NCBI GenBank assembly: GCA_039802865.1
Contig: JBDRXL010000002.1
Location: 39,826-103,825, forward strand
DNA from: a candidate division WOR-3 bacterium
Lineage (GTDB): Bacteria; Hydrothermota; Hydrothermia; LBFQ01; DSFT01
Length of the DNA: 64,000 nt
Reading direction: 5' to 3'
The notes beneath the pieces are model-generated. The model saw only the letters and a list, made by a program, of their open reading frames with translations, had not been told where the DNA came from and did no database searches. Each line of letters starts with the position of its first letter. The stretch's first letter is position 1. The translations under genes and the position numbers were made by a program. This document shows, in pieces, positions 23,651 through 42,630 of this stretch.

Positions 23651-25246
23651 ATGCTTAGCAAACTTTTGAGCCATGAACCAAGACCTGGGCTCTTAGGTTG
23701 GTTATTTTCAACAGATCATAAGCGAATTGCCCTTCTTTACTTTTGGACAATAATTTTCTTTTTCCTTATTGCTGGAATTTTTGCACTTTTAATAAGAACT
23801 GAATTATTTTTGCCAGGAAAAACACTTTTTGATTCTGATACCTATAATAGAATATTTACTCTTCATGGAGTAATGATGGTATTTTTAGTAATAGTTCCAT
23901 TAATTCCTGCAGTTCTTGGTAATTACTTTATACCACTTATGATAGGGGCAAGAGATGTTGCATTTCCAAAACTTAATTTATTATCTTATTGGGTTTATTT
24001 AATAGGTGCTCTTATTGTTTTATCTTCTTTAATTTTTGGTGCTATTGATACAGGTTGGACATTTTATACGCCGTATAGCTTAAAAACGGGTGGGGGAGTT
24101 TTATTAGCATTACTTGGCGTTTTTATAATAGGATTTTCATCTATTTTAACAGGTCTTAATTTTGTAGTAACAATTCATAGACTAAGAGCTCCGGGACTAA
24201 GTTGGGGTAAATTACCTTTATTTGTATGGGCACTTTATGCAACATCGCTTATGAACGTTATTGCAACACCTGTTATAGGTATAACATTATTATTGTTAAT
24301 ACTTGAAAGATTATTTGGTGTTGGATTTTTTGATCCCACAAAAGGTGGAGATCCTATTCTATTTCAACATTTCTTCTGGTTTTATTCGCATCCCGTAGTA
24401 TATATAATGATACTTCCTGGTATGGGTATTATATCTGAGTTAATATCAGTTCATTCAAGGAAGAGGATATTTGGATATTGGGCTATGGCAGCAGCTATAT
24501 TTGGTATAGCATTTATTGGATTTATTGTATGGGCTCATCATATGTTCGTTAGTGGTATGTCAGATGTTGCAAGATGGATATTTTCATTCTTAACATTCTT
24601 TGTGGCGGTTCCAACAGGAGTAAAAGTATTTAATTGGGTTGCAACATTATATGGAGGTTCAATTAGATTAACTACACCAATGTTATATGCATTATCATTT
24701 TTATTCTTATTTACAATTGGAGGACTTACAGGACTTTGGCTTGCTACTGTTGCGACAGATGTTTATTTACATGATACCTATTTTGTAGTAGCACACTTCC
24801 ATTATGTTATGGTTGGAGGAGCTATAACTGCTTTCTTTGGAGGTTTATATCACTGGTTTCCAAAAATTACAGGTAGAATGTATAATGAATTTTGGGGAAA
24901 GATTAGTGCTTTACTTGTATTCTTAGGTTTTAATATGACATTTTTCCCACAATTTTTATTAGGAATGCAAGGTATGCCAAGAAGATATTGGGATTATCTT
25001 CCTGAATTTACATTATTAAATCAAATATCAACTATTGGAGCATTTACATTAGCAACTGGTGTATTTATATCTTTATTAACACTCTTTATTGCTTGGAGAA
25101 GGGGACCAAAAGCTGTTGAAAATCCTTGGGGTGCTGCTACCTTAGAATGGCAAACTACATCTCCACCACCTTATTATAATTTTAAAGAAATACCTCATGT
25201 AGAGCATGGTCCTTATGAATATGAAGTTTTGAAAAAGGAGGGATAA
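23651..25246 (+). CDS. coxA: Cytochrome c oxidase subunit I
   Basis: 12-TM haem-copper oxidase subunit I with conserved His ligands (WAHHMF, HFHYV). Confidence 0.95.
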   Translation: MLSKLLSHEPRPGLLGWLFSTDHKRIALLYFWTIIFFFLIAGIFALLIRTELFLPGKTLFDSDTYNRIFTLHGVMMVFLVIVPLIPAVLGNYFIPLMIGARDVAFPKLNLLSYWVYLIGALIVLSSLIFGAIDTGWTFYTPYSLKTGGGVLLALLGVFIIGFSSILTGLNFVVTIHRLRAPGLSWGKLPLFVWALYATSLMNVIATPVIGITLLLLILERLFGVGFFDPTKGGDPILFQHFFWFYSHPVVYIMILPGMGIISELISVHSRKRIFGYWAMAAAIFGIAFIGFIVWAHHMFVSGMSDVARWIFSFLTFFVAVPTGVKVFNWVATLYGGSIRLTTPMLYALSFLFLFTIGGLTGLWLATVATDVYLHDTYFVVAHFHYVMVGGAITAFFGGLYHWFPKITGRMYNEFWGKISALLVFLGFNMTFFPQFLLGMQGMPRRYWDYLPEFTLLNQISTIGAFTLATGVFISLLTLFIAWRRGPKAVENPWGAATLEWQTTSPPPYYNFKEIPHVEHGPYEYEVLKKEG

Positions 25247-27526: not shown

Positions 27527-29365
27527 ATGTATTATTGGTATTTTAAATTGTTTAATAATATAAAAAGTGAGCATGAGGCAAATGAGTTAGCAAAGATTGA
27601 ATTGGAGAGTTTATTTGGTAAGGTAGAGCCGATTTTTAATTTTGCAGATAGATTGTGCGAAGAGCCATTGCGTATATTCATGAGTATGCCCGAAAGATTA
27701 CAAGATTATATAATTCATGAATTGCCATATGGTAAAATACAAGGTTATTTTGCAAAATCACATGAATTGAAAAATTTGAATAAATTAGTAAAGAGATTGG
27801 CATATACTCGGGAAATTTATGTTGTTTTAAAGCTTGATTCACATAAACCAATTGAAGACTTAAAAGATATTATTTTCTCGGAAGGTGTTTTAGGTAAGAA
27901 TTTTCAATATTTCAAGGCAAAGGACTATGTGTGCATAAGAGCTATAACTCATCAATATTTTTTAGAAAAATCTGAGTATATATCAAAATTAAGTAGGAAT
28001 GAACAAGAGATAGAAAGAAATGTAAAGATATTATTTTCCTATTTGACAGAAAAGCTTTATCGTATTCCTGCTTCTGTTACTTTGAGTATCGGAAAACGTT
28101 TAGAGGATTATTTCACTATTAGAGAAGAACCTTCTCTTTATCTTACACATTACTTTCATCCATATAAAGGTAAATTTCATCCAAAAATGGTAAGAGCATT
28201 AATAAATTATATATATCCTTCTGACAAAGGAATTTTGCTTGATAATTTTGCAGGAAGTGGAACTTCATTGGTTGAGGCAGTTTTGATGGAGCTTGATAGT
28301 AAAGGAGTGGAAATAAATCCGCTTTCTGCTTTAATGTGTAATGTAAAAACGAGATCATTAATTTTAAATTTTAATCAATTAAAGGAAGAAATATATAATT
28401 ATTTTGAGGAGGTAAAATTTGCTCTTTCAATATATGAGTCTATGAAGAAGGGTCAATTGTTACTACAAAAAAGTAATATAAACTTTGATATAATTAGACA
28501 AAAAGTTTTTACTCTTTCAAGTAATCTGAAAGGTTATTTAAAGAGGGATAGTGAAATAATTTCACAAGTTTTAATATTTAGAGAAATTTTAAGTGCTATA
28601 AAAGATGATGAGGTTAAAAATTTTCTATTGTTAGTATTGAGTGGAACTATTAGTGATGTTATAAGAAGGAAAAATGGGAATTTTTTATCCTTGTTTGAAG
28701 AAAGATTAAAGGAGCTTTATTTGAGATTGTTCCTTTTTCAGGAATTAAATAAAGTTTTAAAAATTAATGTTGGAAAATCTGAGACTTATGTTTGTGATGC
28801 AAGAAATATGGAAGAATTTGTTGAAACGGAAGAAATAGACGGTATAGTTACATCTCCACCTTACTCTGTTGCGTTGGATTATATAAAAAATGACTTTCCC
28901 CAACTGGTACTTTTGGAATTGGTTGAATCTATTGATAAGTTAGAAAAAGCTATGATTGGAAATCCCAGGGCAACATATAATAAGGAATTACTCTTCACTT
29001 ATGATAAAACTATTTTACCCAAAATTGCAGAAGATGTTTTAAATATTCTTTTTAGAAATGGAAAGGAAAAAGAAGGATTGCGTAGTTTAAAATTTTTTAT
29101 TGATATGTTTAAATCCTTGAAGGAGATGTATAGAGTTCTTAAAAGAGGAAGCTATTGTGTTATTGTGATAGGTAATAATCATTTTTCTGTGGATGGAAAG
29201 GTTATTGAAATTCCAAATGATAAAATTATCTTGGAGTTGGCAAGTAGTATTGGTTTTGTTCAATGTAAGTTTATAAAGCGAGAATTAGAAAAGAGTAGTG
29301 AAGGTAACATCAAGGAAGAAAGTATCATAATTATGAAAAAAGGAGGTAGTATAAGTGGGGGTTAA
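27527..29365 (+). CDS. Putative DNA amino-methyltransferase (N6A/N4C), 612 aa
   Basis: Motif I LLDNFAGSGTSLVEA and motif IV DGIVTSPPYSVALDY ~200 aa apart; large N-terminal extra domain. Confidence 0.55.
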   Translation: MYYWYFKLFNNIKSEHEANELAKIELESLFGKVEPIFNFADRLCEEPLRIFMSMPERLQDYIIHELPYGKIQGYFAKSHELKNLNKLVKRLAYTREIYVVLKLDSHKPIEDLKDIIFSEGVLGKNFQYFKAKDYVCIRAITHQYFLEKSEYISKLSRNEQEIERNVKILFSYLTEKLYRIPASVTLSIGKRLEDYFTIREEPSLYLTHYFHPYKGKFHPKMVRALINYIYPSDKGILLDNFAGSGTSLVEAVLMELDSKGVEINPLSALMCNVKTRSLILNFNQLKEEIYNYFEEVKFALSIYESMKKGQLLLQKSNINFDIIRQKVFTLSSNLKGYLKRDSEIISQVLIFREILSAIKDDEVKNFLLLVLSGTISDVIRRKNGNFLSLFEERLKELYLRLFLFQELNKVLKINVGKSETYVCDARNMEEFVETEEIDGIVTSPPYSVALDYIKNDFPQLVLLELVESIDKLEKAMIGNPRATYNKELLFTYDKTILPKIAEDVLNILFRNGKEKEGLRSLKFFIDMFKSLKEMYRVLKRGSYCVIVIGNNHFSVDGKVIEIPNDKIILELASSIGFVQCKFIKRELEKSSEGNIKEESIIIMKKGGSISGG

Positions 29366-29996
29366 AAAGAGAATAATTGAAGGACCGGAGATAAAAATTT
29401 CTGAGCCTATAGGGCGCTTTGAGATTGTAAGAAAAGTGGTCTCAACTTTTATTGATTTTGAAAAAGATAAAAAAGGAAAGGGTATTGAATTTCGTTATCC
29501 TGTTGAAAATCTATCTATTGGTGATAAACTTTATATTCATAGACCAGGAATTAAATGGAATTTTGATTTTAAGGTAGAAGTTTTTCCAAGGTTTGGCCTT
29601 CAAGATGGAAAGCATGAACAAATTGCTTTAATTTTAAGGAAAATTAAAAGGACAAATAAAGAAGAATTTAGCAAACTTTGGAATATGATTTGTCAGTTGT
29701 ATCACTGTTCAAATAATGATGTAGATCTGCTTTTAAGAATGAACCGCATTTCAATAAGTAATCCCAAACCTGATATTTTATTGAAGGTTATAAAATGGTT
29801 ATTTATTATGGAGGATATAGTTTATTGGCACTATGAGGGTAGAGCGTTTTTATATAACTTTTTCTTATATGTTATAAGTGAGAGAAACACTAAACAACTT
29901 AGTGATATTTTATCTCAATTTAAAAAAAGAAAGGCAAAACCTGAAAAAATAAAAAAGCTACTTGAAGAATTAGGGATAAATTGGGAATTACCATAA
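29355..29996 (+). CDS. Hypothetical protein translationally coupled to the methyltransferase; candidate restriction endonuclease or specificity partner
   Basis: Start overlaps MTase stop by 11 nt; no recognisable domain. Confidence 0.3.
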   Translation: MGVKKRIIEGPEIKISEPIGRFEIVRKVVSTFIDFEKDKKGKGIEFRYPVENLSIGDKLYIHRPGIKWNFDFKVEVFPRFGLQDGKHEQIALILRKIKRTNKEEFSKLWNMICQLYHCSNNDVDLLLRMNRISISNPKPDILLKVIKWLFIMEDIVYWHYEGRAFLYNFFLYVISERNTKQLSDILSQFKKRKAKPEKIKKLLEELGINWELP

Positions 29997-30046: not shown

Positions 30047-33000
30047 ATGGAAAAGCACATAATTTCAGATTTTGAAGAGGAATTAAAAGAAAGTTATTTA
30101 AAATTTGCTTTAAGTGTTATAATAAGCAGAGCCATACCAGATGCAAGAGATGGTTTAAAACCTGTTCAAAGAAGAATTCTCTATGCTATGTATGATATGG
30201 GTTTATTGCCAAATAAACCATTTAGGAAATCTGCTACGGTTGTTGGTGAAGTAATTGGAAAGTATCATCCCCATGGAGACCAAGCAGTATATGATGCATT
30301 AGTAAGATTGGCTCAGGACTTTCATATGCGATATCCACTTATAGAAGGTCAAGGAAATTTTGGTTCTATTGATGGAGACCCACCTGCCGCATATAGGTAT
30401 TGTCTTACAGGTGATGCCCTTGTTATTACAAATAAAGGATTAAAAAGAATAGATAGAATTGCCAATAGTGAAGATATTAAAAACTTAGGATTTGAAATTT
30501 TATCATTTAATAAAAAGATAAATAAAATTAGTAAATGGTTTGATTCTGGCATACACCCAGTTTTTGAAATTAGGACAGTGAGAGGATTTTCATTAAAAGG
30601 CACTTCAAATCATCCAATTTTAATTTTTGATAAAAGTTCTAAAAAATTTATTTGGAAAACAATAAGTGATATTCAATTTGGTGATTATGCAGTTATTGAT
30701 ATATCAACAGATTATCTTTTTAATAAAGAAGAAGCAAAAACTCTTTCAAAATACCTAAGGAAAGTTTTTAAAGAAAATAGTAATATTGTTAATAGTCTTG
30801 AAAATCCTAAAATTATATTATATTCAGCAAACTTTGACTTTTTAAGTCAAATTCAAGTGCTTCTTTTAAGGTTTGGAATTATAAGTAATATTACAAAAAA
30901 TCAATTAGTAATAAACTCTTTTGAAAATCTACAAAAGTTTTATAAGTTTATAGGTTTTGAAGATAAAGAAAAAAGTTATCAGTTAAGAAAAATTTTAAAT
31001 TCTTTTAAGGGGGAAATTTTTGAATTTAAAAATGGTTATTTAATTGAGCCAATTGTGAGGAAAAAATTTTTAGGTTTTGATAGGGTATATTCTATAAAGG
31101 TTGAGAGTGATTGTCATTCATTTGTTGCTAATGGTTTTATAAATCATAATACAGAAGCACGCTTAGAAAAAATTTCCTTAGAATTGTTAAATAATATAGA
31201 AGAAGATGTAGTAGATTTTGTAGATAATTTTGATGGTAGATTTAAGGAGCCAGTATTATTGCCAGCAAGCTTTCCAAACCTTTTAGTAAATGGTGCAGTT
31301 GGTATAGCGGTTGGTATGGGAACAAGTATTCCACCACATAATTTATCCGAAGTAATTGATGGAACAATTGCATTAATAGATAATCCAAATATTACTATTG
31401 AAGAATTAATGAGATATATAAAAGGTCCTGATTTTCCTACGGGTGGAGTTATTGTAGGTAAGAAAGGAATTTATGAAGCATATAAAACAGGTAAAGGAAA
31501 AATTACTGTAAGAGCAAAATATGAAGTTGATGATAAAAGTATAATAATTAAAGAAATCCCTTATCTTGTAAATAAGGCTGAACTTATTAGTAAAATTGCA
31601 CAACTTGTAAGAGATGGCGTTATTGAAGGAATTTCTGATATTAGAGATGAGTCTGATAAGGATGGTCTTAGAGTTGTAATTGAAATAAAAAGAGGTTATG
31701 AAAGTCAGATTGTTTTAAATCAATTATTAAAGCATACGAAACTTCAAGATACATTTGGCATAAATATGATTGCTATTTTAAATAATCAACCAAAAACATT
31801 TAACTTAAAAGAATTACTTGAAGTATTTATTAGTTTTAGACAAGAAGTTGTTATAAGGAGAACACAATTTAGATTAAATAAAGCAAAGGCAAGAATGCAT
31901 ATTCTTGAAGGATTTTTAAAAGCCCTTGATAATTTAGATGATATTATTCAAATTATTAGAGGTAGTGAAGATGTTCAAATAGCAAGAAAAACACTTATTG
32001 AAAAATATAATTTTACAATTGAACAAGTAAATGCAATATTAGAGCTTAAATTACAAAACTTAACAAAACTTGAAAGAGAAAAAATTTTAAGTGAGTATAG
32101 AGAGCTTGAAAAAGATGTTAATTATTATCAAACACTTCTTACTAAAAGAGATGAGTTATTAAAACTTATAAAGAAGGAATTATTGGAAATTAAGGAAAAA
32201 TATGGGGATAAGAGGCGAACTTTAATTACTGAAAAAGATGAGGTTAGTTTTGAGATTGAGGATTTAATTCAAAAGGAAGAAACAGTAATTTTAATTACAA
32301 AGAATGGTTATATAAAGAGAATGTCATTAAAAAGTTTTAGAACACAAAATAGAAATACAAAGGGTAAAACAGGCATTAAAACTTATGAAGATGATATACC
32401 ATATAAAATTGTTATAGCAAATACTCATTCACAACTTCTCTTTATAACAAATAAAGGTAGAATGTTTTGGACAAAAGCATATAAAATTCCTGAAATGGGT
32501 TTAACAAGTAAGGGTAAATCTATAAATAATTTCTTTACATTAAATCAAGATGAAAGAATTGCTGATATACTACCTAATGAGGATGCAAGATATATAGTTA
32601 TTATTACAAAAGCTGGAAGGTTAAAAAGGGTTAGTTTAGATGAAATCTCAAAGGGAAGAATGGGTTCTCAAATTATTAAGTTGAAAGATAATGATGAAGT
32701 AGTAAAGGCTTTATTAACACTTGGTGAGGAAGATATTTTAATAGCAAAAGAAGATGGAAAGGTTGTAAGAATAAAACAAAGTGAAATTCCAATTCAAAGT
32801 AGGAAAGGAAGTGGTGTTAAGGGGGTAAAGGGAAAGGATGTTATTTCAGGGTGCATTATATTGCCAAATTCAAAAGTTATAACTATTACGGAAAGAGGTT
32901 ATGGTAAAAAGGTTAAAGAAGAGGAAATTCCAGCATTAAGAAGAGGAGCAAAGGGTATTTATATAATAAAGGCAAGGGAAAAAATAGGTAAGTTAATTGC

Positions 33001-33172
33001 GGTTGTTGATAGTATTCAAGAGAATGAAAATTTACTTATCATTACAAAAAATGGTTTAGCATTAAGAATAGATATTTCTAATTTAAATGAACTTTCAAGA
33101 AACGCTGGCGGAGTTAAATTAATTAATTTAGAAGAAAATGATTTAGTTAGTGCAGTGGGGGTGGTAAGATGA
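30047..33172 (+). CDS. gyrA: DNA gyrase subunit A, interrupted in-frame by a 250-aa intein (exteins 30047..30400 and 31151..33172)
   Basis: GyrA blocks: QRRILYAM, active-site AAYRY then, after the intein, TEARLEKIS; C-terminal beta-pinwheel repeats. Confidence 0.9.
30401..31150 (+). other. GyrA mini-intein (250 aa) inserted after the catalytic Tyr
   Basis: Begins CLTGDALV (block A), GTSNHPIL (block B), ends [22 protein letters not shown] (blocks F/G) followed by +1 Thr; same site and high similarity to Mxe GyrA intein; central ~110 aa retains only a degenerate DOD block ([13 protein letters not shown]). Confidence 0.85.
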
Positions 33173-34518
33173 GATTTGAACCTTTTAAGATAAAAGTAAT
33201 AGAACCAATAGCTATTACAACAAAAGAAGAAAGATTAAAATATATTGAGAATGCTTATTTTAATGTATTTTTCTTACCTTCAAATGTTATTACAATTGAC
33301 CTTTTAACAGATAGTGGAACATCCGCTTTAAGTAAATATCAAATGTCCGCTATGATGCTTGGAGATGAGGCTTACGCTGGTTCTGAAAGTTATTATAAGT
33401 TTGAGGAATCTGCCAAAAAATTAACAGGAAAAAATTTTATAATTCCTGTTCATCAAGGAAGAGCAGGTGAAAAAATAATTACAACTTCTCTTATAAATAG
33501 GGGTGATATTGTAATATCAAATACATTATTTGATACAACAAGGGGAAACTTTGAGTTTGGAGGAGCTATAATATATGATATTCCGGAAGAGCATAGTTTA
33601 GAAAGTGAATATCCATTTAAAGGAAATATAGATTTAAATAAGCTTGAAGATTTATTAAAAAAATTTGAAAGGAAAGTTAAATTAGTAGTTTTAACAATTA
33701 CAAATAATTCAGGTGGTGGTCAAGCAGTAAGTATAGAAAATGTGAAAAGGACTAAGGAGCTTTGTGAAAAATATAATGTTAAATTGATGATAGATGCTTG
33801 TAGAATTTGCGAGAATAGTTATCTTGTAAAATTAAGAGATGAAAATTATAAGAATAAAACAATTCTTGAAATTGTAAATGAAACATTAAAATATGCTGAT
33901 ATTATTACATTTAGTGCAAAAAAAGATGGACTTAATCATATAGGTGGATTTATTGCTTTGGATGATGAGAAATTAGCAGATGAATTTAAAAATTATTTAG
34001 TTCTTTTTGAAGGATTTCCAACATATGGTGGTATGGCTGGAAGAGATTTGGAAATTATAGCGGTTGGAATTATGGAAGCATTAGATGAAAATTATTTAAG
34101 TCATAGAATAAGTCAAGTGAAGTTTTTAAATGAAAAATTATATAATCTTGGTATTCCTGTAATGAGACCATTTGGTGGACATGCAGTTTATGTAGAAGCA
34201 AAACAATTTTTAGAGCATATTGATGAAAATGAATTTCCAGGGCAAAGCTTAGTAATAGCACTTTATATTGAAGGGGGAATAAGAGCAGTTGAGGTTGGTA
34301 AATTTATGTTTAAAGATGCAAAATATAATTTTGTAAGGCTTGCTATTCCAAGAAGAGTTTATACTTATTCTCATTTAGAATATGTGGCAGAAGTTTTTGA
34401 GAATATAAAGAAAAAGAAAGATAACATTAAAGGGATGAGAATAGTAAAAGAAAGTAAATTTTTAAGACATTTTACCTCTCATTTAGAAGCAATTGATAAT
34501 TGGCATCTTAAAGTTTAA
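33169..34518 (+). CDS. Beta-eliminating lyase (tryptophanase / tyrosine phenol-lyase family)
   Basis: Length and N-terminal [14 protein letters not shown]... plus PLP-Lys region [12 protein letters not shown] typical of TnaA/TPL. Confidence 0.75.
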
Positions 34519-35522
34519 ATAAACCCTTTTTCTACTTCATTAATAATTTTTATATTAAATTCTTGCGCAAGCTCTAAAACTCCACCTGGATAAACAAAAG
34601 GACTTATAAAAATTTTATCATCAATTTTCCTTTTAAATTTCATTTCATACAATTGAACTTTTTTTTCAAATGCGAATATGTCTGACTTATCAACAGAAGA
34701 TTTTATTTCTATTGCTATTGTTTTACCATTTGTTATAATAAGGTCTATTTCAATAGTTGAAGGTTTTGAGAATACATAACCTTCATCATCAAAGAAAATT
34801 AATTTTTCTACTTTAAATCCCATGTCCTTTAATAAATAAGCAATTGAATTTCTAAAAGTATTTTCTGATTCAATTCCCCATCGCGCTCCAAGAGAACTTA
34901 TTTTGTTATCTATGTATTTTTTCATATCTTGAAAGCCTTGTTCTACTTTTTGTTCTAATTTATATATTCTTTCTCCATGCTCTTTTGTTATTTCTCTTAA
35001 TTCACTAACTGCTTGTGTTAATTCCATTACTGCTTTTTCTAATTTTTCTATTCTTTCACCATGTTGTTTTGTTATTTCTCTTAATTCATTAACAGATTGT
35101 CTTAATTCACTAACTGCTTGTGTTAGCTCCATTACTGCTTTTTCTAATTTTTCTATTCTTTCACCATGTTGTTTTGTTATTTCTCTTAATTCATTAACAG
35201 ATTGTCTTAATTCGCTAACTGCTTGTGTTAGCTCCATTACTGCTTTTTCTAATTTTTCTATTCTTTCACCATGTTGTTTTGTTATTTCTCTTAATTCACT
35301 TACTGCTTTTGTTAAATCATCCACTCTTTCAGTAAGCTTATTAATCGCTTGCCAAACTTTTTTACTTTCTTTATTCCCTTCTTTAACTACTTTCCATAGT
35401 TCCTTTATCATCTTCCTATTTTGCTCTATTTCTTCTTTTATTATGATTTCCACAATCTCTCTTATGGAATCTCTATACTCCTCTGGAAGTTTTTCTAATA
35501 TCTTGTTTATTTTTTCTATCAT
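34515..35522 (-). CDS. Coiled-coil protein with 3.4 tandem 35-aa repeats and a C-terminal PD-(D/E)xK-like domain (DUF3782-like?)
   Basis: Repeat LREITKQHGERIEKLEKAVMELTQAVSELRQSVNE x3; C-terminus ...IEIDLIITNGKTIAIEIKS has a D-x-E-x-K pattern; own TTTAAAATTT element directly upstream. Confidence 0.5.
   Translation of the reverse strand: MIEKINKILEKLPEEYRDSIREIVEIIIKEEIEQNRKMIKELWKVVKEGNKESKKVWQAINKLTERVDDLTKAVSELREITKQHGERIEKLEKAVMELTQAVSELRQSVNELREITKQHGERIEKLEKAVMELTQAVSELRQSVNELREITKQHGERIEKLEKAVMELTQAVSELREITKEHGERIYKLEQKVEQGFQDMKKYIDNKISSLGARWGIESENTFRNSIAYLLKDMGFKVEKLIFFDDEGYVFSKPSTIEIDLIITNGKTIAIEIKSSVDKSDIFAFEKKVQLYEMKFKRKIDDKIFISPFVYPGGVLELAQEFNIKIINEVEKGFI
34955..35310. repeat. 105-bp tandem repeat, ~3.4 copies, in-frame inside the coiled-coil gene
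   Basis: Unit boundaries at 35039, 35144, 35249 (period 105); near-perfect copies. Confidence 0.9.
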
Positions 35523-41007: not shown

Positions 41008-42630
41008 TTAACCTCCTGTTGTTCTTATTACATCATAATAAACAAAGGTATAAGCTATAACAATTAAAATTAAGGCTAAGACAATCCAAACTTTAAATTC
41101 ATTTAAAAGTTTAGAATCTGCTTTGTCAAGTGATTCTGCATCTTCAATTTCAATTTTTTCCTCATTTACTTTCTTTGAGAATAAAAGACTAAAGAATACA
41201 ATAAAGTAAAATACCATTGCTAAGAACATAATAATTCCACCTATTAAAGCAATGTAGTTCCATATCATCCAATCAGGATGATAAAGAGGACTTTCTGGAT
41301 TTGCATAAGTTAAACCCATATTTGTTCTTCTTGGAATACCTAAAACACCACCTACCATCATTGAAATTCCAAAAATTACAGAACCTATAAGCCATAGATA
41401 GGGAACTAATAAATTTAAAGTTTTTAAAGGAATTTCTTTACCTGTAACCTTTGATATTAAATATAAGCTAATTCCAAGAATTCCAAGAAATACAAGACCA
41501 CCTACTGTTAAATGGAAATGACCTGGAACATATGATGTGTTATGAACAACAAGATTTACATTATATGAAGCATTAACGATTCCAGTAATTCCACCTAATA
41601 TAAATACAAAAAGTCCAGAAATAAAGTAAGCAAAGAGCCACTTTTCTTTATCAAAATAAGGGAGTTTAAATAACCAGCTTAAAAGACCATTGCTTCCATT
41701 TCTCCTTGCACCATATTCTAAGGTTGCAGCAACAGTAAATGCGGTTATGAATGAAGGAATTGCAACCATAAATGTTAAAAATCCTTGTATAAGTTTCCAA
41801 CTTGTGCCAATGCCAGGGTCTGCATACTGATGATGAACACCAACGGGAATTGAAAATAAAATAAATAATACGAATGAAACTCTTGCAAATGTATCAGAAA
41901 ATAGTTTTGAAGATATAACCTTTGGTAAAAGAGTATAAAGTCCTATATAAACTGGTAATAACCAGAAATAAACAAGGGCATGTCCAAACATCCAAAATAG
42001 TGTTCTTGCTAAAAGATTATTTATTTCTTGAACTAAACCAAGGGATTTTGGTAAAAGCATAAAAAGAATTTCAATAGCAACAGGAATTGTGCATAAGAAC
42101 CATATTAAGAATGTTGTAAGTATTCCAAATACTGCAAGAGGTGTATATTTATTTTCTTTTTTATATGATAAATAAGTAGGAATCCAATTAAAGAAAGCAA
42201 CCCAAGAACCAACTACTAATAAAACCGCCCCTATATAGAATGCAGGTGGAGCTATAAGTGGTGGGTAAAATGTATATAATACATCAGTTTTTTGAATAAG
42301 AATAGCATAAGCGGCTAAAAGTGTTCCAATTAACATAAGCCAGAATGAAAGCCAAGCAATTTTGGTATTTATAGGTTTTTTAAGATAATGATAAATTATT
42401 GCATTTCCAAAAGCAACTGCAAAGAATGTAGTAAGAACAATAGCATTAACAACACCATGTAATGTTAAACCTTGATAATAAGTTAATCCCAAAAAACTAA
42501 CGGATTTGATAATTCCAGCCCTATAGAGAACCTGCATGAGCCCATGGTAAATTCCAAGAATTAAGAGGATGATTGAGATTGTTATCTCCCAAAAGATCAA
42601 GGTTCTCAAACTTTTTTGGATTCTTTCCAT
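41008..42630 (-). CDS. cbaA: ba3-type cytochrome c oxidase subunit I
   Basis: ~13-TM haem-copper oxidase with His ligands (HHQYADP, HNTSYVPGHFHLTV); TTTAAAATTT element directly upstream. Confidence 0.85.
   Translation of the reverse strand: MERIQKSLRTLIFWEITISIILLILGIYHGLMQVLYRAGIIKSVSFLGLTYYQGLTLHGVVNAIVLTTFFAVAFGNAIIYHYLKKPINTKIAWLSFWLMLIGTLLAAYAILIQKTDVLYTFYPPLIAPPAFYIGAVLLVVGSWVAFFNWIPTYLSYKKENKYTPLAVFGILTTFLIWFLCTIPVAIEILFMLLPKSLGLVQEINNLLARTLFWMFGHALVYFWLLPVYIGLYTLLPKVISSKLFSDTFARVSFVLFILFSIPVGVHHQYADPGIGTSWKLIQGFLTFMVAIPSFITAFTVAATLEYGARRNGSNGLLSWLFKLPYFDKEKWLFAYFISGLFVFILGGITGIVNASYNVNLVVHNTSYVPGHFHLTVGGLVFLGILGISLYLISKVTGKEIPLKTLNLLVPYLWLIGSVIFGISMMVGGVLGIPRRTNMGLTYANPESPLYHPDWMIWNYIALIGGIIMFLAMVFYFIVFFSLLFSKKVNEEKIEIEDAESLDKADSKLLNEFKVWIVLALILIVIAYTFVYYDVIRTTGG

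Follow-up and report, generated by a model that had tools for sequence, protein, structure and literature searches.

Here we report a 250-residue insert in the gene of DNA gyrase subunit A (gyrA) of a candidate division WOR-3 bacterium, which is very probably a self-splicing intein of the gyrA-a family with a decayed homing endonuclease. The gene lies on the plus strand of contig JBDRXL010000002.1 (assembly GCA_039802865.1), in the 64,000-nt stretch of DNA analysed here (the window). Inteins of the gyrA-a family are widespread and well understood; what is new is the candidate phylum WOR-3 as a carrier lineage. The insert occupies residues 119–368 of the precursor, exactly 250 codons in frame, with the junctions ...GDPPAAYRY/CLTGDALV and VANGFINHN/TEARLEKIS.

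The gyrA reading frame is intact over 3126 nt. Its product exceeded the cut-offs of the NCBIfam GyrA equivalog models (NF004043, 1013 bits, cut-off 902; TIGR01063, 999 bits, cut-off 877) and scored below those of the NCBIfam ParC models. The Pfam domain DNA_topoisoIV was recovered in two pieces interrupted by the insert, the second of which starts at residue 369 (profile position 92), and six DNA_gyraseA_C blades were identified with Pfam. Removal of the insert leaves a GyrA of 791 residues that is colinear with intein-free relatives of 793 residues, and excision yields the junction AAYRY-TEARL, which is the same in the intein-free relatives P0169 and P0170. The residue preceding the insert is Tyr118, which we take to be the catalytic tyrosine from established knowledge of GyrA (Tyr122 in Escherichia coli). 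Thirteen contigs encode the identical protein, and the insert is present in each of the four assemblies of metagenome-assembled genomes (MAGs) that were inspected (GCA_030550205.1, GCA_039802845.1, GCA_039802985.1 and GCA_039802945.1); the window is base-identical to contig JBDRXN010000010.1 of GCA_039802945.1 over the 7.1 kb compared. The presence of the insert in independent assemblies therefore shows that it is not an assembly artefact.

The insert was recognized by the Pfam model Intein_splicing (E = 8.4e-15, 55.3 bits, cut-off 35.8) and by the NCBIfam models intein_Nterm (32.7, cut-off 24.5) and intein_Cterm (19.4, cut-off 15.6), whereas the product remained below the cut-off of the NCBIfam model GyrA_w_intein ('intein-containing DNA gyrase subunit A'). 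The two best sequence matches in the PDB were both entries of the Mxe GyrA intein (1am2, 1.8e-16; 4oz6, 5.2e-15), followed by a DnaX intein (4.5e-8). The chain of 4oz6, which includes extein flanks, aligns through ...NGFVSHNTEA onto the C-side junction in the window, and the C-terminal junction is therefore the same site as that of Mxe GyrA. The GyrA intein of Mycobacterium leprae presumably stands directly after the catalytic tyrosine as well. It has been reported at residues 131–550, a stretch of 420 residues (PMC7711215).

All residues used in splicing are present, namely C1, T68-x-x-H71, H239 (block F), H249-N250 (block G) and Thr+1. Invariant positions in an alignment of 41 sequences were C1, N70, H71, P72, W85, V229, Y230, S231, H239, F241, G245, H249 and N250, and C1 was invariant in 57 of 57 members of the gyrA-a family. 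Judged by its sequence, the insert is a putative class 1 intein (Cys1/His-Asn/Thr+1) of the gyrA-a allelic family and its sequence is nearer to gyrA-a inteins than to those in other host proteins. A BIL domain was ruled out by the presence of His-Asn-Thr and by the location of the insert, which lies in the loop that is most conserved in this essential enzyme. An initial annotation, made from the letters of the sequence, had placed an intein with blocks A, B, F and G and a +1 Thr at 30401-31150, between the junctions given above and at the exact gyrA-a site of the mycobacterial GyrA inteins. Boundaries and junctions proved correct to the base, all four blocks and the threonine are present, and the site agrees with both the HN/TEA junction of 4oz6 and the position of the M. 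leprae intein. Two checks that it had proposed, a comparison with intein profile models and a search for intein-free gyrA in relatives, likewise came out in favour of an intein, the former with curated cut-offs passed for both Pfam and NCBIfam and the latter with four intein-free proteins (P0166, P0167, P0169 and P0170).

The model obtained with AlphaFold2 from the family alignment (mean pLDDT 94.4, pTM 0.91) predicts a HINT fold. Intein residues 109–201 form an alpha-beta-beta-alpha-beta-beta-alpha(-alpha) arrangement in this model (helices 109–126, 145–156, 174–184 and 189–201; strands 127–130, 137–141, 162–165 and 168–172; mostly pLDDT >90), corresponding to one LAGLIDADG half-domain nested in the HINT domain. 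The best Foldseek match was 1am2 (8.8e-14), which was found together with many other intein structures at probability 1.00, and the nuclease-bearing inteins TliVMA and PI-PfuI spanned more of the query (TMq 0.62-0.65). The Pfam model LAGLIDADG_3 matched the insert partially, at intein residues 136–185, and above its cut-off (E = 1.3e-7, 32.2 bits, cut-off 22.5). The coordinates of all parts are given in Table 1.

Table 1. Features of the gyrA precursor gene and its intein in the window (aa, amino acids), with the ratio of non-synonymous to synonymous substitution rates (dN/dS) and the amino-acid identity between the window and the orthologous locus L085.
Feature	Position	Strand	Basis or remark	dN/dS	aa identity
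gyrA precursor open reading frame	30047..33172	+	1041 aa; 791 aa after splicing (predicted); Pfam and NCBIfam		
N-extein, aa 1-118	30047..30400	+	last codon Tyr118 (30398-30400) of AAYRY	0.02	97.5%
Intein, 250 aa, Cys1 ... His249-Asn250	30401..31150	+	Pfam, NCBIfam, PDB sequence and fold matches	0.23 (whole)	63% (whole)
N-terminal HINT part, intein aa 1-105	30401..30715	+	aligns to Mxe GyrA residues 3-109; blocks A and B	0.21	70.5%
Block A (C1)	30401-30403	+	in N-terminal HINT part		
Block B (G67-T68-S69-N70-H71-P72)	30599-30616	+	in N-terminal HINT part		
Single degenerate LAGLIDADG half-domain, intein aa ~106-205	30716..31015	+	Pfam, alignment, AlphaFold2 model	0.26	48% (lowest in protein)
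Decayed motif-2 helix, intein aa 118-128	30752-30784	+	within half-domain		
C-terminal HINT part, intein aa 206-250	31016..31150	+	aligns to Mxe GyrA residues 173-199	0.125	80%
Blocks F and G, intein aa 229-250	31085-31150	+	in C-terminal HINT part		
C-extein	31151..33172	+	first codon is the +1 nucleophile Thr (31151-31153) of TEARL	0.11	81%

An antisense open reading frame of 84 codons at 30349-30603 was unsupported. A search of the gyrA region with Rfam found no RNA, and a scan of the window for further HINT domains found none besides the gyrA intein.

The nuclease part of the intein is strongly reduced. Relative to full-size relatives, about 190 residues of the nuclease region are missing from the window intein. 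The first LAGLIDADG half-domain, from block C (LAFxLGAxxxEG) onward, is gone (alignment occupancy 0.02), as is most of a helical accessory region of about 80 residues before the C-terminal HINT strand (0.19), whereas the second half-domain is nearly whole (0.93) and includes the string LLLRFGI at intein residues 154–160. At the catalytic position (block E), the sequence is FKENSN in the window and FSKKGI in the orthologous intein at locus L085, compared with FEGDG in relatives that look active; other short inteins have FNENN, FGDSK, FNTKD or FQNIE. The window and L085 share no acidic residue at this position, which argues against nuclease activity. With block C absent and block E altered, the element does not look like an active LAGLIDADG homing endonuclease intein; the nuclease is probably dead, and the intein would no longer be able to spread by homing. 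In the homing cycle, an intein invades and becomes fixed, after which its nuclease degenerates and is deleted; a nuclease scaffold that is no longer active can persist when the HINT domain grows dependent on it, a relationship referred to as mutualism of homing endonuclease (HEN) and HINT (PMC8966425). The window intein is at the degeneration/deletion stage of this cycle. These results modify two points of the initial annotation. It had rightly recognized a degenerate endonuclease remnant but had reduced it to a short motif, whereas a complete half-domain of about 95 residues is confidently modelled; and the term 'mini-intein', which implies the lack of an endonuclease domain, was used loosely. 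A strict mini-intein is ruled out by the LAGLIDADG_3 match and the predicted folded half-domain, and true mini-inteins at this site have only 172–177 residues.

Relatives were collected by a search with the spliced GyrA of 791 residues. Three proteins of 793 residues with about 80–81% identity (P0166, P0167 and P0169) and a WOR-3 protein with 75% identity (P0170) lack the intein, whereas a protein of 1043 residues with about 81% identity (P0168) contains it. The GyrA relatives with 75% and about 50% identity carry the labels WOR-3, Hydrothermota or Hydrothermia. The intein-less gyrA site at locus L086 reads GCTTACCGATAC/ACTGAAGCAAGA. P0168 is encoded at locus L085 (GCA_965649185.1) of a sister lineage, where the gene order is the same as in the window: methylase, a gene of 213 codons, gyrA and beta-eliminating lyase. 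The L085 intein also has exactly 250 residues and aligns without gaps to that of the window; the truncation of the nuclease is therefore older than the split of the two lineages.

Since gyrA does not differ among the four MAG copies, the diverged L085 locus was used to estimate selection by the method of Nei and Gojobori (Table 1). The absence of indels and stop codons, together with a clear gap between pN and pS, indicates that the whole intein, including the half-domain, is under purifying selection. The synonymous divergence (dS) was 1.02 for the C-extein, 0.99 for the intein and 0.53 for the N-extein (118 codons); the low value of the N-extein may be due to noise in a small sample, to constraint on codons near the beginning of the gene or to an ancient tract of co-conversion. 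The G + C content of the intein is 23.5%, a value among the lowest 5% for segments of 750 nt, compared with 29.2% in the exteins, whereas G + C at third codon positions (GC3) is similar (0.116 and 0.142, respectively). This combination fits long residence with relaxed amino-acid constraint. A recent foreign origin of the intein was ruled out by the similar GC3 and by the sharing of the intein with a lineage at a dS of about 1. Within this thermophile-like lineage of WOR-3, the intein has probably been passed on by vertical descent.

Inteins at the same site are common. When 1.84 billion representatives were searched exhaustively with phmmer, 2165 matches were obtained at E<=1e-3, among them 322 at E<=1e-10, and the strict pattern AAxRY/C...HN/TE was found in 57 of the best 150 matches. 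These 57 gyrA-a inteins have 172–453 residues and comprise 3 true mini-inteins (172–177 residues), 15 of 245–345 residues and 39 of full size; named carriers include Patescibacteria (Jorgensenbacteria). No intein at the RY/T site was present among the 80 GTDB genome-scan loci listed. A published survey lists 50 GyrA inteins, with Actinobacteria, Aquificae, Chloroflexi and Proteobacteria as carriers (PMC4760082). Together with the existence of the GyrA_w_intein model at NCBI and the frequency among the best matches, the phyla in this survey remove the ground on which the initial annotation had considered a GyrA intein outside Mycobacterium and some archaea to be notable.

In a rough neighbour-joining tree of the HINT parts, calculated without support values, the window intein clusters with the full-size inteins of P0007 and P0009, and short inteins are scattered among full-size ones, which suggests repeated, independent decay of the nuclease. 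The second half-domain has been kept and most of the first lost in about a dozen gyrA-a inteins of 245–310 residues from various parts of this tree (P0074, P0019, P0027, P0112, P0075, P0107, P0131, P0079, P0057, P0106 and P0108). Loss of the first half-domain may be a preferred route of decay, or the pattern may reflect a selection bias from ranking by similarity to the query, which itself has the second half. Other sites in GyrA are also occupied among the loci and proteins surveyed (L005, L020, L041, P0009 and P0019): DPANN/Woesearchaeota-like archaea carry a gyrA intein about ten residues upstream of the catalytic tyrosine (...GIFVHN/SIDGD), and L041 (Methanomassiliicoccus) has one at another, different site. 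The GyrA of P0019 holds three inteins and that of P0009 at least two.

We propose that the precursor of 1041 residues would be inactive as gyrase because a domain of 250 residues parts Tyr118 (position -1 of the intein) from the residue that follows it in the active-site loop. Once the precursor has been translated, an N-S acyl shift at Cys1 would be followed by trans-esterification to Thr+1 and by cyclization of Asn250, aided by His249 and His239, and a final O-N shift would release the mature GyrA with the restored ...AAYRY-TEARL... junction. Inserts in an essential active-site loop are rarely deleted with precision, and the intein would persist for this reason. Retention of the half-domain as a folded scaffold probably reflects a structural mutualism of HINT and HEN, in which the nested insert must fold cleanly if the essential host protein is to be made.

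Several points weigh against this explanation. The support for splicing is indirect and comes from purifying selection on both the intein and its essential host gene. Only the 64-kb window is in view, and a second, intein-free gyrA elsewhere in the genome is possible. The dS of about 1 is near saturation in an AT-rich genome, which makes the dN/dS ratios approximate. The decayed motif can be aligned only to within one residue, and Glu125 could therefore be the residue at the catalytic position in the window, where L085 has Lys.

Of the alternatives, conditional splicing, which would supplement rather than replace the proposed mechanism, has the best prospects but is nevertheless unlikely. Maturation of gyrase would be switched either by a disulfide between C1 and C238 or by temperature-dependent folding via the half-domain. 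The window intein has only these two cysteines (C238, nt 31112-31114), and 48 of the 57 family members have a cysteine immediately ahead of the F-block His, a position occupied by Asp in Mxe GyrA. Inteins that sense redox state, such as the mycobacterial DnaB intein, have reportedly been documented, and the cytochrome oxidase genes of the host indicate that it meets oxygen. However, the equivalent of C238 is missing in 9 of the 57 members, and its conservation may be mere active-site packing. A wider reading, to which we likewise give only a small chance, would view the half-domain and Cys238 together, given the exact length and purifying selection in two lineages and the recurrence in about a dozen seemingly independent inteins: they might form a temperature or redox gate of gyrase maturation in a thermophilic microaerophile, or the half-domain might be the minimal scaffold that the HINT domain needs to fold.

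It is distinctly less probable that the half-domain is still functional, either as a homodimeric nuclease in the manner of I-CreI or as a DNA binder that arose by exaptation. The confidence of its predicted fold, its dN/dS of 0.26 without indels between the window and L085, and the retention of the same half in other short inteins at the site would agree with a function, but the catalytic position carries no conserved acid (KENS in the window, SKKG in L085), also not in the other short inteins, no other part of the protein evolves as fast as the half-domain, the accessory region for DNA recognition is deleted, and the selection of short inteins favours query-like sequences. Slightly less credible still is an insert that does not splice, in a gyrA that is a pseudogene or has been repurposed while another topoisomerase fills its role; the restricted view of the genome and the indirect grounds for splicing leave room for it, but the intact frame, the extein dN/dS of 0.02-0.11, the conservation of all splicing residues in two lineages at a dS of about 1 and the scores of the GyrA equivalog models speak against it. 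A chimera or sequencing artefact, which the origin of the sequence from a MAG might suggest, has a negligible probability in view of the 13 contigs, the four separate assemblies and the diverged orthologue in GCA_965649185.1 with the same gene order. A self-splicing intein with a decayed nuclease thus stands as the best explanation.

The closest species-level genome among the matches listed is a candidate division WOR-3 MAG (L001; 78% identity), whose contig ends before the intein site. The window has a G + C content of 28%, and its genes include an AcrB pump, a subtilase with a C-terminal tail of the type IX secretion system (T9SS) and two genes for cytochrome oxidase subunit I (COX1; 23651-25246, plus strand; 41008-42630, minus strand). 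Within WOR-3, reports of cytochrome c oxidase are confined to the thermophilic sy37/Caldipriscus cluster (PMC12285271). This cluster, which carries the COX1 trait, is thermophilic and microaerophilic. The fraction of IVYWREL residues in the window proteins (0.442) corresponds to about 79 °C by the regression of Zeldovich, a rough estimate that is probably inflated by AT bias, whereas the charged-minus-polar (CvP) score is only 0.057. The initial assumption of a probable thermophile is reasonable, though short of proof.

Immediately upstream of gyrA lie a gene for a protein of 612 residues with an N6/N4 DNA-methylase domain (27527-29365, plus strand) and, overlapping it by 11 nt, an open reading frame of 213 codons (29355-29996, plus strand) with no Pfam or NCBIfam match; the two may form a restriction-modification pair. 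Both genes also precede the intein-bearing gyrA of L085, but the pair is missing upstream of the intein-free gyrA of L086 and L087. A gene on the minus strand (34515-35522) encodes a coiled-coil protein with DUF3782 and PD-(D/E)XK nuclease domains at its end and contains 2.9 near-perfect copies of a 105-nt (35-residue) tandem repeat (34995-35298). The sole base differences among the four MAG copies of the locus (35126, 35127 and 35165) are all in this gene, and its called product has 309, 339 or 370 residues in other assemblies compared with 335 in the window; these differences suggest that the number of repeats varies or is difficult to assemble.

For general biology, this intein carries little weight. 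It is a clean natural intermediate of the homing cycle, with one half-domain removed and the other retained under constraint, and intein-bearing and intein-free alleles coexist among close relatives. The pair of 250-residue inteins from the window and L085 could serve to test the structural mutualism of HEN and HINT. In practice, thioesters are generated with the Mxe GyrA intein, of which the window intein is one of several candidate thermostable relatives; the smaller inteins of 172–177 residues at the same site would, however, be better starting points.

The Mxe GyrA intein of Mycobacterium xenopi (1AM2, 4OZ6) shares with the window intein the host protein and the insertion site (RY/C ... 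HN/TEA), Cys1, the T-x-x-H of block B, His-Asn and Thr+1, and also a Ser (VYS) in block F where Asp is the usual residue. It differs in having only 198 residues, with the nuclease replaced by a short linker where the window intein has a predicted folded LAGLIDADG half-domain, in the Asp that corresponds to Cys238, and in its actinobacterial host as compared with an AT-rich WOR-3 bacterium. The likeness, which the initial annotation had extended over the whole length, is limited to the HINT parts (intein residues 2–102 and 224–250), and the central 120 or so residues are unlike. Full-size gyrA-a inteins, such as that of M. leprae GyrA (420 residues) and those of P0007-P0014 (401–453 residues, some from Patescibacteria), have the same insertion site and the LLLRFGI helix and the closest HINT sequences (P0007, 52% identity over residues 1–112), but retain the helical accessory region of about 80 residues together with the two nuclease motifs, LAFxLGAxxxEG and FLxxxFEGDG. 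The PhoVMA intein (7QST) and TFIIB inteins resemble the window intein in keeping an inactive nuclease without catalytic acids as a folded domain in HINT, and such retained dead nucleases have been read as intermediates from full-size intein to mini-intein (PMC8966425); Foldseek matches of the window model include 7qsu, 7qst and 1dq3. Those inteins have kept both half-domains, whereas the intein of the WOR-3 gyrA has cleanly lost one entire half-domain.

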